From NCBI GenBank assembly GCA_022969815.1, contig GCA_022969815.1_4535.1: 64,000 nucleotides of DNA. One strand, 5' to 3'. Shown piece after piece: positions 28,447-29,377 of this stretch; the first letter of the stretch is position 1, and each line of letters begins with the position of its first letter. Below the pieces are notes generated by a model. That model had not been told where the DNA came from. It did not search any database and saw only the letters and a list, made by a program, of their open reading frames with translations. The DNA is from Escherichia coli (GTDB lineage: Bacteria; Pseudomonadota; Gammaproteobacteria; Enterobacterales; Enterobacteriaceae). The position numbers and the translations under genes were made by a program.

Positions 28447-28884
28447 ATGTTGAACGTTCCTGTTAAATTCGTCGATAGCTGTGTTAATGCTTACCAACAA
28501 ACTTGTAAACGTGCCTCAAACTGTTTGCAGTCTTTGATTCAAACGCGGTACGTGATCCAAAAGAAAAGAAAGTGGTTTGGTAAGGATTCTTATAGTGTTA
28601 ATGCGTTCGGGGAGTATCAACTCCAGTATGACGATAACATGCAACACATCTTAGAGTTTTTACTGATAAAAGATAAAATCTCCCCTGCGGATTACCAGTT
28701 ACTTAAATTCTACGATCAGAGTTTGTCTATTGAGGAAGTTATTCAAGATATCCTTTCTCGTAAGACAGATAAGAACACTGTTGGTATTACAAACTTAGAG
28801 ATGCAATTGCTCAATGAGATCTTTTTGTTTGTGGAAGATGAGTCTGTAACTAAGGAGGAGCTTTTAAATGGCTTTAAGCTATGA
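28447..28884 (+). CDS. hypothetical protein (145 aa)
   Basis: ORF with AGAGGAGA SD. Confidence 0.5.
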   Translation: MLNVPVKFVDSCVNAYQQTCKRASNCLQSLIQTRYVIQKKRKWFGKDSYSVNAFGEYQLQYDDNMQHILEFLLIKDKISPADYQLLKFYDQSLSIEEVIQDILSRKTDKNTVGITNLEMQLLNEIFLFVEDESVTKEELLNGFKL

Positions 28885-29377
28885 TCGTCCAGAGTCCGAT
28901 TACTATCCGACTCCGCAAAAAGCGATTAACTCGTTATTTAGCATTATTGATTTTAAAAATTTGAAAGAGGAAGGATTTACATTTGCAGAACCGTGTAAAG
29001 GACAAGCAGCGGCTATTTACCGTCACTTTCCTGAAGGTTCTCAGTATTGTGAGCTTGAAGAAGGTAAAGATTATTTTAGTCACGTATGGGAAAATCGTCC
29101 CGACATTATAATCACGAACCCTCCATTCAAGCTGGCATTAGAGTTCTTGGAAAAGAGCTTGAAAGAAGCAGACGTGTCAGTCTACCTGCTTCGCCTGGGA
29201 TTCCTTGAGTCAAAGAAACGTCGAGCGTTTCATCAAGAAAACCCACCTACGAATTTGATTGTACTCTCCGAACGTCCTTCGTTCGTAGCAGGTGGAACAG
29301 ATAAGACAGCGTATGCTTGGTACGTATACGATCCAAAACAAATTTTGGGTCTAACTCAACCATTTTATTTCGTTTAA
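28868..29377 (+). CDS. small DNA N6-adenine (or N4-cytosine) methyltransferase-like protein
   Basis: DYYPTPQ, FAEPCKG (motif I-like) and IIITNPPF (motif IV NPPF). Confidence 0.55.
   Translation: MALSYDRPESDYYPTPQKAINSLFSIIDFKNLKEEGFTFAEPCKGQAAAIYRHFPEGSQYCELEEGKDYFSHVWENRPDIIITNPPFKLALEFLEKSLKEADVSVYLLRLGFLESKKRRAFHQENPPTNLIVLSERPSFVAGGTDKTAYAWYVYDPKQILGLTQPFYFV

Follow-up and report, generated by a model that had tools for sequence, protein, structure and literature searches.

The product of the gene at 28868..29377 of the window (the whole 64,000-nucleotide stretch of Escherichia coli DNA analysed here) is probably, with a likelihood that we put at about 0.6, an orphan DNA N6-adenine methyltransferase, an activity classed as EC 2.1.1.72. 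The gene is real and under strong purifying selection, and it belongs to a family, PHROG 799, that is essentially confined to phages and prophages. Taken singly, this 169-aa methyltransferase gene is ordinary and previously annotated, identical copies of the protein carrying an existing annotation as DNA adenine-type methyltransferase. The family as a whole may rank among the largest phage methyltransferase families that lack a characterised member, a solved structure and a model in Pfam or NCBIfam.

The open reading frame starts with ATG and encodes a 19.6 kDa product that is acidic overall (pI 5.4), a charge which in itself neither supports nor excludes DNA binding. The frame and the three motifs picked out by the sequence-only reading, DYYPTPQ, FAEPCKG and NPPF, were all confirmed (residues 11-17, 39-45 and 84-87), and its description of the protein as much smaller than typical Dam-like enzymes agrees with the lengths of T1 Dam (237 aa), Hia5 (281 aa) and M.EcoGII (349 aa). 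Such a small size has a precedent in the Pfam phage 'Dam' model PF05869, which has 169 positions. The AGGAGG inside the upstream ORF (28447..28884), together with the 17 nt which that ORF shares with the methyltransferase CDS, makes up a translational-coupling layout as far as it can be read from the sequence. Methyltransferase catalytic motifs occur in only two ORFs of the window, those at 28868 and 35545 (Table 1).

Table 1. Positions in the window of the methyltransferase gene, its start signal and motifs, and the second methyltransferase-like gene.
Feature	Position	Strand	Basis
Shine-Dalgarno-like AGGAGG	28853..28858	+	read from sequence; 9 nt before ATG, within 3' end of upstream ORF
CDS, stand-alone methyltransferase catalytic domain, 169 aa + stop	28868..29377	+	ORF list, sequence, phrog_799, AF2 model, dN/dS
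Motif X-like DYYPTPQ, residues 11-17, then N-terminal helix 17-26	28898..28918	+	alignment, model
Motif I FAEPCKG, residues 39-45: strand 1 and SAM loop	28982..29002	+	alignment, model
Motifs II and III, E62...D68-Y69	29051..29074	+	alignment, model
Motif IV IIITNPPF, residues 81-87, catalytic amino-methyltransferase motif at end of strand 4	29108..29128	+	alignment, HMM hits
Basic patch KKRR at residues 115-118, in the segment joining strands 5 and 6	29210..29221	+	R118 invariant
Motif VIII-like RPSF (136-139) and 5-residue loop VAGGT (140-144)	29273..29299	+	R136, P137, F139 invariant
Compact C5-cytosine DNA methyltransferase-like protein, 227 aa (FDGSG, FPPC, ENPVG)	35545..36228	+	ORF, phrog_757, AF2 model

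The protein matched phrog_799 'DNA methyltransferase' (E 3e-54, 185.9 bits, residues 4-157), a family name given by annotation. In a 90%-clustered database 210 homologues were retrieved, all of about 160-205 aa, and a wider search returned 13,547 representative clusters (50% identity) at E ≤ 1e-3, with 6,821 of them at E ≤ 1e-10; nearly all family members have 130-260 aa. Comparison with the ZCKP1 and ALITA orthologues (76-79% nucleotide identity) gave dN/dS values of 0.04-0.06. Among the best 150 representatives one protein was much longer than the rest, owing to a tandem duplication, and domain fusions that might hint at a substrate were absent, the other extensions carrying no Pfam domain. 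A literature search covering phAPEC8, rV5, phi92, Certrevirus and 'Wecvirus' found no enzymology or methylome data for family members, and its lone experimental hint was the ClaI digestion pattern of phage CB7 DNA, for which host Dam is an equally good explanation.

No Pfam or NCBIfam model reached its cut-off for the window protein, and likewise nothing above threshold was obtained for 57 relatives or for distant phage relatives. N6_N4_Mtase (PF01555) and MethyltransfD12 (PF02086), the two families which had been proposed as an HMM check in the sequence-only reading, did not appear for the window protein even at E ≤ 10, and neither turned up for any of the 57 family members at E ≤ 0.01. For the window protein EcoRI_methylase (PF13651) scored 12.8 bits against a cut-off of 26.4, and N6_Mtase (PF02384) and Eco57I (PF07669) were also below threshold, family members giving only subthreshold hits around NPPF. 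The subthreshold Pfam hits of the 57 members (EcoRI_methylase 20, Eco57I 5, N6_Mtase 3 and Dam 2) all come from DNA adenine methyltransferase families, and these and the PADLOC hits are all centred on the motif IV stretch. PADLOC MTase_II matched at 6.9e-5; this match cannot separate DNA from RNA enzymes, because PADLOC holds defence proteins only. A single-sequence search of the PDB gave noise only (MglB, ribosomal protein S10), with no solved structure matched by sequence, while the profile search gave weak matches, the best being HsdM (E 0.016, with the motif X, I and IV regions aligned), followed by ErmAM (E 0.019) and METTL5 (E 0.33). Membership in the T1 Dam family was rejected (hhalign probability 2%): PF05869, with a gathering threshold of 28.1 bits, did not hit the window protein and gave subthreshold hits in 2 of the 57 relatives (best E 0.0011), and T1 Dam, as positive control, scored 236 bits (1.7e-70).

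The AF2 model (pLDDT 90.4, pTM 0.86) consists of one Rossmann methyltransferase domain. Since this single domain fills the whole protein there is no target-recognition domain (TRD); RPSF is followed by a loop of only 5 residues, and the protein ends 30 residues later. The fold neighbours include DNA adenine methyltransferases (M.TaqI, E 1.2e-4; HsdM of StySJI and EcoKI; CamA; PacII) and RNA methyltransferases (PH1948, which is METTL5-like; METTL5; KsgA; Dim1; Erm; TrmM), and the TMq of PH1948 is the highest of all neighbours at 0.64, against 0.53 for M.TaqI. The earlier assignment to the methyltransferase-like proteins of the amino-methyltransferase (NPPF) type, and the compactness noted along with it, are thus upheld by phrog_799, the confident Rossmann model and the M.TaqI, HsdM and CamA folds. 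The motifs follow the gamma-class order X-I-II-III-IV...VIII (YPTP 13-16, EPCKG 41-45, E62, DY 68-69, NPPF 84-87 and RPSF 136-139), and all of them are conserved and situated on predicted strands and loops. The M.EcoKI/M.TaqI group ('group 2') has been described as having a helix ahead of the core and a strand-3 region that resembles coil (PMC4738411). Our model, which is a predicted and not a solved structure, fits this description: helices 17-26 and 29-34 precede strand 1, and residues 61-79 show nothing more than a helical turn of 3 residues (63-65), with no strand as long as 3 residues. The segment from strand 2 to strand 4 is mostly coil in the prediction, so that strand 3 and its helices are degenerate.

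Conservation was scored on a 57-sequence alignment reaching down to 42% identity, in which T15, E41, P42, C43, D68, Y69, N84, P85, P86, R136, P137 and F139 are invariant. In the motif X-like stretch Y13 and P16 are at least 90% conserved, and in the profile search DYYPTPQ lines up with the 'YFTPR' region of StySJI HsdM. G45 of motif I is likewise conserved to at least 90%, and FAEPCKG lines up with 'DPACGTG' of HsdM, while in the clade of the window protein another residue stands in place of the second glycine of the usual GxG (GQAAA). E62 (at least 90% conserved) and D68-Y69 are presumably the acidic positions that contact the ribose and adenine of SAM, with roles assigned by analogy with M.TaqI. 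In motif IV, which we take to fit the PROSITE N6_MTASE pattern, I81 and T83 are also invariant and F87 is at least 90% conserved; the retrieved members have NPPF (194) or NPPY (62) at this place and never SPP. The KKRR patch is the sole positively charged segment in an otherwise acidic protein and is a candidate for contacting the nucleic-acid backbone. The loop after RPSF is the lowest-confidence internal region of the AF2 model and is 5-6 aa long in 190 of 252 relatives. In 42 of the 252 (~17%) an insertion of 22-51 aa with at least 3 Cys is found here, typically about 30 aa with four cysteines, and because of this insertion the loop is a candidate 'mini target-recognition' site. The sequence-only reading had allowed that lack of a target-recognition region might make an active enzyme implausible. 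The lack is real, whereas the implausibility does not follow, since the catalytic and cofactor motifs are conserved family-wide and dN/dS is low, which argues on sequence grounds that the protein is likely active.

The genomic neighbourhoods of the family are phage replication, recombination and nucleotide-metabolism modules. In phages, the neighbours include primase, RNR, 5'-3' exonuclease, dUTPase, Thy1 and dCTP deaminase; in a P2-like phage the family gene sits between replication genes B and A, and in Staphylococcus phage SEP9 it adjoins a cytosine DNA methyltransferase gene. Related loci were sought with a 9-sequence alignment. Neighbours in 21 bacterial loci were integrase, RecT, RusA, ParB_N, DnaB_2, VapE, Prim-Pol, DUF1064, Gam, terminase and a C5 DNA methylase. 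The 129 neighbouring ORFs of these loci contained 66 Pfam families, and none of the 25 listed was a restriction-endonuclease family. Nor did the closest annotated phage or two metagenomic phage loci show a restriction endonuclease near the gene. A conserved upstream partner or specificity gene was also considered and rejected: in each of three unrelated phages the ORF upstream adjoins the gene or runs into it, yet these ORFs are not homologous.

The second gene, at 35545, had been called C5-methyltransferase-like, and this call stands. Its product matches phrog_757 at 1e-82, its bacterial copies are named 'DNA cytosine methyltransferase' by NCBI, and the best folds for its AF2 model (pLDDT 84) are the DNMT3A/B catalytic domains (E 1e-7); the N-terminal part of M.HaeIII was matched weakly, and there was no Pfam hit. 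The two genes had been read together as possibly giving two DNA-modification activities, consistent with anti-restriction self-protection. The presence of two methyltransferase genes in the window does not by itself imply such protection, which we judged indirectly, from the published phenotypes of orthologue-bearing relatives. Orthologues are present in BASEL phage PaulScherrer, which is phi92-like (83% identical), and in rV5-like BASEL phages (44%). The RM systems EcoKI, EcoCFT_I, EcoRI, EcoRV, EcoCFT_II and EcoP1_I are, as far as is known, all blocked by adenine methylation within their own sites. The phi92-like and rV5-like groups were described as 'exceptionally susceptible' to these six systems (PMC8594841). 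Because phages that bear orthologues are susceptible to all six, a broad anti-restriction role is not supported and the self-protection proposal is weakened; the enzyme would not be a broad, non-specific restriction shield.

From these data we infer the DNA substrate, adenine N6 as target atom, the roles of the residues, dimerisation and the biological purpose as follows. The protein would be a SAM-dependent amino-methyltransferase that consists of the catalytic domain alone and belongs to the M.TaqI/M.EcoKI-like lineage. Expressed together with the early/middle genes for replication and nucleotide metabolism, it would modify phage DNA at a defined sequence, which is probably short. Motif X (Y13-P14-T15-P16), motif I (E41-P42-C43-x-G45), E62 and D68-Y69 would bind SAM, and N84-P85-P86-F87 and F139 would make up the pocket that receives the flipped-out target adenine. 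As there is no TRD, the DNA contacts would have to come from short elements, which may be the loop after RPSF (with its four-cysteine module in some relatives), the KKRR patch and the N-terminal tail; the second subunit of a homodimer could possibly provide a further contact.

Parts of the fold evidence would also suit an RNA methyltransferase that acts on rRNA or tRNA (at adenine N6 or guanine N2) and tunes host or phage translation. PH1948, a METTL5-like protein of about 200 aa and putative RNA methyltransferase, has the highest TM-score, KsgA, Dim1, Erm, TrmM and METTL5 are among the fold neighbours, ErmAM is about level with HsdM in the PDB profile search, and the Pfam 'MTS' small-domain family appears for the window protein at E 0.1. 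The phage also encodes tRNAs and a tRNA-synthetase-like gene near the methyltransferase gene, and the acidic protein is without a DNA-binding domain. We nevertheless regard an RNA substrate as unlikely, as the family is essentially restricted to phages and prophages, where it lies in modules for DNA replication and recombination (RusA, RecT, ParB, primase, C5 DNA methylases), and the subthreshold Pfam hits of its members are all to DNA adenine methyltransferase families. The occurrence of PHROG 799 members in phages of 37-54 kb too was taken, from phage size alone, as an argument against a role on tRNA. With DNA as the substrate, cytosine N4 instead of adenine N6 could be the target, given that the fold and the (D/N/S)PP(Y/F) motif are common to both kinds of enzyme and sequence alone cannot fix the target base, and that N6A clades have given rise to N4C enzymes on several occasions (PMC4738411). 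This is very unlikely, however, in view of the first residue of the motif, which is Asn in 256 of 256 motif-bearing members, Ser being the residue that goes with N4C clades (PMC4738411), and of the nearest folds and every subthreshold HMM hit, which are adenine enzymes.

An adenine methyltransferase of low or no specificity, laying an m6A blanket over the phage DNA to shield it broadly from restriction, on the model of M.EcoGII or Hia5, would be in line with a protein that is all catalytic domain and has no TRD, and with the second compact methyltransferase gene in the same phage. Non-specific adenine methyltransferases of phages and prophages do exist and protect DNA from many restriction enzymes (PMC3299994, PMC5778455). 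The susceptibility of phages with 83% and 44% identical orthologues to six RM systems makes this highly improbable, and M.EcoGII and Hia5 are moreover of other classes, with a TRD present as described for M.EcoGII. The same missing anti-restriction phenotype in relatives could be read as a lack of catalysis on nucleic acids, the protein being a SAM-binding or SAM-sequestering protein, a regulatory remnant or simply dispensable, which would also agree with the loss of the second glycine of motif I in its clade and with the phiWec188 allele, which is frameshifted and truncated to 129 aa. We consider inactivity the least probable account: the cofactor and catalytic residues, including NPPF and F139, are invariant in distant relatives at the dN/dS given above, and SAM binding alone would not need a conserved target-base pocket. 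A bolder proposal, which is rather unlikely, is that PHROG 799 represents TRD-less minimal adenine methyltransferases that work in an unconventional way, as homodimers, or on RNA, or on single-stranded intermediates of replication or packaging, and whose role is something other than restriction protection. A homodimer in which one subunit substitutes for the TRD is hinted at by the natural tandem-duplicated member. Marking of the phage DNA for its own replication, for packaging or for nuclease discrimination are candidate roles under such a proposal.

If the protein is an orphan DNA adenine methyltransferase, as we prefer, its motif would extend the list of catalogued phage orphan methyltransferases by one, and the enzyme would help to account for how host range and restriction vary among Stephanstirmvirinae and rV5-like therapeutic phages. 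The family matters more than the single gene, as the activity of one TRD-less NPPF enzyme of about 170 aa would provide a function for thousands of genes and would reveal how a protein of this small size picks its target.

Among known systems, the protein is most comparable to the gamma-class N6-adenine DNA methyltransferases M.TaqI and the type I HsdM subunits (M.EcoKI, StySJI M), with which it shares the motif order X-I-II-III-IV...VIII, the N-terminal helix with Y-x-T-P, the NPP(F/Y) catalytic loop and the degenerate strand-3 region; these are also its best PDB matches, M.TaqI by fold (E 1.2e-4) and HsdM by profile (E 0.016). M.TaqI carries a large TRD at its C-terminus and HsdM relies on a specificity subunit of its own, HsdS, whereas the window protein has 169 aa, no TRD and no conserved partner gene, the matched PDB chains being of 394-485 residues. 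It also differs from the methyltransferases of RM systems in having no linked restriction endonuclease gene in the phage and bacterial loci examined (families listed).

M.EcoGII, Hia5, Hin1523 and Nme1821 are, like the protein proposed here, orphan adenine methyltransferases of phages or prophages, and have been proposed as anti-restriction devices (PMC3299994, PMC5778455). These non-specific enzymes are longer, however (281-349 aa), and M.EcoGII is described as a beta-class enzyme with a central TRD, Hia5 being compared with M.EcoKDam and M1.DpnII (PMC3299994, PMC5778455). In contrast to the M.EcoGII/Hia5 type, the relatives of the window phage are without broad protection from restriction. 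The rRNA m6A methyltransferases PH1948 and METTL5 (COG2263) are similar in being a single Rossmann domain of about 200 aa with NPPF (TMq 0.64), and they have a Y-P-T-like N-terminal motif. They are cellular housekeeping enzymes, though, while the family described here occurs in phage DNA replication and recombination modules, and the sequence similarity is not significant (METTL5, E 0.33).

T1 Dam (PF05869) can be compared with the window protein in other respects, being orphan, phage-borne and compact, with an NPPY-type motif and a location in a replication module, although there is no detectable sequence relationship between the two and the fold similarity to T1-like Dam models is moderate (TMq about 0.55). 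T1 Dam is GATC-specific, which suggests that a phage methyltransferase can be small, have no classical TRD and still be sequence-specific.

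Translation of the ORF confirms a compact methyltransferase-like gene in the phage region, and the three motifs named in the sequence-only reading are present in its 169-aa product (DYYPTPQ at 11-17, FAEPCKG at 39-45 and NPPF at 84-87). A motif scan found methyltransferase catalytic motifs in only two of the 103 window ORFs of at least 100 aa, namely this gene and the C5-methyltransferase-like gene. The start of the ORF overlaps the upstream ORF by 17 nt within a long co-directional gene run. The features of the region are collected in the table; the 196-aa protein listed there seems far too short for a complete synthetase, and the hairpin was scored terminator-like on both strands, such sites being no commoner in the region than in shuffled sequence.

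Features of the window; positions marked ~ are approximate, mapped from the PsgM04F annotation
Feature	Position	Strand	Details
Methyltransferase ORF	28868-29377	+	ATG start, 169 aa
AGGAGG	28853-28858	+	9 nt 5' of the ATG of the methyltransferase ORF
Upstream ORF	28447-28884		overlaps the methyltransferase ORF
C5-methyltransferase-like gene	35545-36228	+	227 aa; motifs FDGSG, FPPC, ENPVG
GC-rich hairpin	28408-28423		TGCCCC-TTCG-GGGGCA, between the HslV-like gene and the upstream ORF
HslV/proteasome-like peptidase gene	27715-28401	+	flanks the methyltransferase; Pfam Proteasome, E 1.2e-5
196-aa protein gene	30080-30670	+	flanks the methyltransferase; matches phrog_4806 'histidyl tRNA synthetase'
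Nucleotide-sugar cluster	~22186-25461	+	two epimerase-like genes and dTDP-4-dehydrorhamnose 3,5-epimerase, inside the DNA-metabolism region
DprA-like recombination-mediator gene	~32046-32624	+	downstream, same co-directional block
Sir2-like NAD-dependent deacetylase gene	~37431-38234	+	downstream, same co-directional block
Five tRNA genes	400-1176	-	Tyr-GTA, Ser-GCT, Ser-TGA, Arg-TCT, Met-CAT

The 169-aa protein matches PHROG 799 ('DNA methyltransferase', E 3e-54). A word-indexed search gave 210 homologues, whose lengths all fall at about 160-205 aa and for none of which a Pfam domain was precomputed. In an exhaustive profile search the representative clusters numbered 13,547 at E<=1e-3 and 6,821 at E<=1e-10, with lengths of 130-260 aa in nearly all of the best 150 of the 13,547. 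By tblastn the family is found in 532 phage records, including small phages of 37-54 kb, with hosts that include Escherichia, Vibrio, Klebsiella, Campylobacter, Aeromonas, Staphylococcus and Listeria. [quoted passage not shown] In an alignment of 57 sequences, with identity down to 42%, the invariant residues are T15, E41, P42, C43, D68, Y69, I81, T83, N84, P85, P86, F93, S97, Y106, R118, R136, P137, F139 and D145. The catalytic motif, among the 256 retrieved members that have it, is NPPF (194) or NPPY (62) and takes no other form. That the protein is inactive is most improbable.

No Pfam family was above threshold for the 169-aa protein (best EcoRI_methylase, E 0.075, and MTS, E 0.1), and N6_N4_Mtase and MethyltransfD12, the models proposed for it from sequence, were absent from its Pfam matches; a search of NCBIfam gave nothing meaningful. 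The 57 relatives had only subthreshold Pfam matches centred on NPPF (EcoRI_methylase 20, Eco57I 5, N6_Mtase 3, Dam 2). More distant phage relatives were likewise without an assigned Pfam family, the positive control, T1 Dam on PF05869, giving 1.7e-70. Kinship with T1 Dam was rejected, the profile-profile comparison giving a probability of 2%. The single sequence had no match among PDB sequences, and the family profile matched there weakly to HsdM (E 0.016, with the YxTP, EPxxG and NPPF regions aligned), ErmAM (E 0.019), PacII M, DpnA and METTL5. One point that goes beyond existing annotation is that this is a very large family for which we found no curated model, solved structure or characterised member.

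Escherichia phages phiWec190 and phiWec188, placed in a proposed genus, 'Wecvirus', of the Stephanstirmvirinae (PMC12695924), share 98.8% identity with the window region; for Phapecoctavirus genomes the figure is about 74%. Public records already annotate the protein as a methyltransferase, and it is a known kind of phage gene: PsgM04F lists the identical protein as 'DNA methyltransferase', the phiWec phages list it as 'hypothetical protein', and the phi92-like orthologues, 83% identical, bear the label 'putative N6 adenine methyltransferase' or, again, 'DNA methyltransferase'. The phiWec188 orthologue BDU13251.1 is annotated as 129 aa, ending ...HQENPLRI, which fits a 1-nt deletion in a CCCACC run (window ~29238-29246) that would take away motif VIII and the last strands; this allele reflects a sequencing error or else points to dispensability in culture. 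Clustering at 90% identity also groups the phi92-type orthologue (P0004) with 142-aa proteins that are orthologues of the upstream ORF, apparently a clustering artefact tied to the overlapping genes.

As judged by family and fold, the phage does have two methyltransferase-like genes of different kinds, as proposed. The 227-aa protein, short for its class as is the 169-aa protein, has no Pfam match, but it matches phrog_757 'DNA methyltransferase' (1e-82), and aligns weakly to the N-terminal motifs of M.HaeIII. Among its 808 close homologues are some that bear the name 'DNA cytosine methyltransferase'. Its model (pLDDT 84) has the catalytic domains of DNMT3A/B as best fold matches (E 1e-7).

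The AlphaFold2 model of the 169-aa protein, built on the family alignment (pLDDT 90.4, pTM 0.86), is a single alpha/beta domain spanning the entire chain, which leaves no room for a target-recognition domain (TRD). Helices 17-26 and 29-34 are followed by strand 1 with EPCKG, a short strand 2 and a mostly coil segment with E62 and D68-Y69, and then by strand 4, which has NPPF at its end. After a long helix come strand 5, a turn with the basic KKRR, and strand 6, and the chain continues through RPSF and a loop of 5 residues into strand 7. In Foldseek comparison with the PDB, M.TaqI is first by E-value (1.2e-4, TMq 0.53), followed by HsdM proteins, CamA and PacII, while RNA adenine methyltransferases are as close or closer in fold (METTL5-like PH1948, TMq 0.64; KsgA/Dim1, Erm, TrmM). 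A comparison with predicted viral structures gave further small methyltransferases of phages, T1-like Dam models (TMq ~0.55) among them. Since the PDB neighbours include both DNA and RNA enzymes, the structure places the protein among nucleic-acid amino-methyltransferases without choosing between the two substrates.

The preference for DNA comes mainly from gene neighbourhoods. Settings of replication, recombination and nucleotide metabolism are typical of orphan DNA methyltransferases in phages. In this phage the early/middle block holds ribonucleotide reductase, sugar-nucleotide enzymes, PhoH, the HslV-like peptidase, a DprA-like protein, the second methyltransferase and Sir2; one metagenomic phage contig has primase, RNR, 5'-3' exonuclease and dUTPase, and another Thy1, dCTP deaminase and a nucleotide kinase. 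At 21 bacterial-genome loci (Alicyclobacillus, Myxococcales and others) the neighbours match phage integrase, RecT, RusA, ParB_N, DnaB_2, VapE, Prim-Pol, DUF1064, Mu Gam, terminase and C5 DNA methylase, and the 25 listed of their 66 neighbour Pfam families include none of restriction endonucleases. The family gene lies between replication genes B and A in a P2-like phage, and adjoins a cytosine DNA methyltransferase gene in Staphylococcus phage SEP9. An RNA methyltransferase, as the fold would allow, is therefore rather unlikely. N4-cytosine, the other target class suggested from sequence, is a highly doubtful one.

Six restriction systems, EcoKI, EcoCFT_I, EcoRI, EcoRV, EcoCFT_II and EcoP1_I, are each blocked when adenine in the system's own site is methylated. 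These are the systems tested in the BASEL study, which reports phi92-like and rV5-like phages as 'exceptionally susceptible' to them (PMC8594841). Published papers have raised the idea that the dTDP-rhamnose pathway of the nucleotide-sugar cluster might serve DNA glycosylation, but phi92-like phages encode machinery of this kind and are restriction-sensitive according to the BASEL study. BASEL phage PaulScherrer carries an orthologue 83% identical and the rV5-like BASEL phages one 44% identical, and since these carriers are nevertheless susceptible, a non-specific adenine methyltransferase of high activity is unlikely. The published phenotypes (PMC8594841) argue against the broad anti-restriction self-protection that had been suggested. 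That available phenotypes do not support the role usually assumed for such genes is the second point beyond existing annotation; a non-specific anti-restriction enzyme is very unlikely, and the BASEL data are fully compatible with an enzyme that is specific for sites of another motif. The sole experimental hint found in the literature searched comes from Certrevirus CB7, whose DNA gave a ClaI digestion pattern that the authors read as Dam-type methylation (PMC7344957), a pattern that host Dam would also give.

As to where specificity might reside, the family's variable site lies directly after RPSF. It is a loop of 5-6 residues in 190 of 252 relatives (5 in the 169-aa protein), and in 42 (~17%) an insertion of 22-51 residues with at least three cysteines, zinc-ribbon-like, follows RPxF; P0046, P0054, P0058, P0065 and P0070 are among the homologues with about 30 aa and four cysteines there. 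The protein is acidic (pI 5.4), its sole basic patch being residues 115-118, which include the invariant R118. A metagenomic homologue of 560 aa (P0222) has two tandem copies of the whole domain in one polypeptide, which hints weakly at dimers as the working form of single-domain members. A conserved specificity partner upstream was also considered and rejected, since the upstream ORFs abut or overlap the gene in three unrelated phage contexts yet are not homologous.

Overall, our data favour, with a probability of about 0.6, an orphan DNA N6-adenine methyltransferase, that is, a stand-alone, TRD-less amino-methyltransferase similar to M.TaqI and M.EcoKI. The M.EcoKI/M.TaqI group of adenine methyltransferases is described as having a helix at the N-terminus and degeneration around strand 3 (PMC4738411), and both are found in the model of the 169-aa protein.
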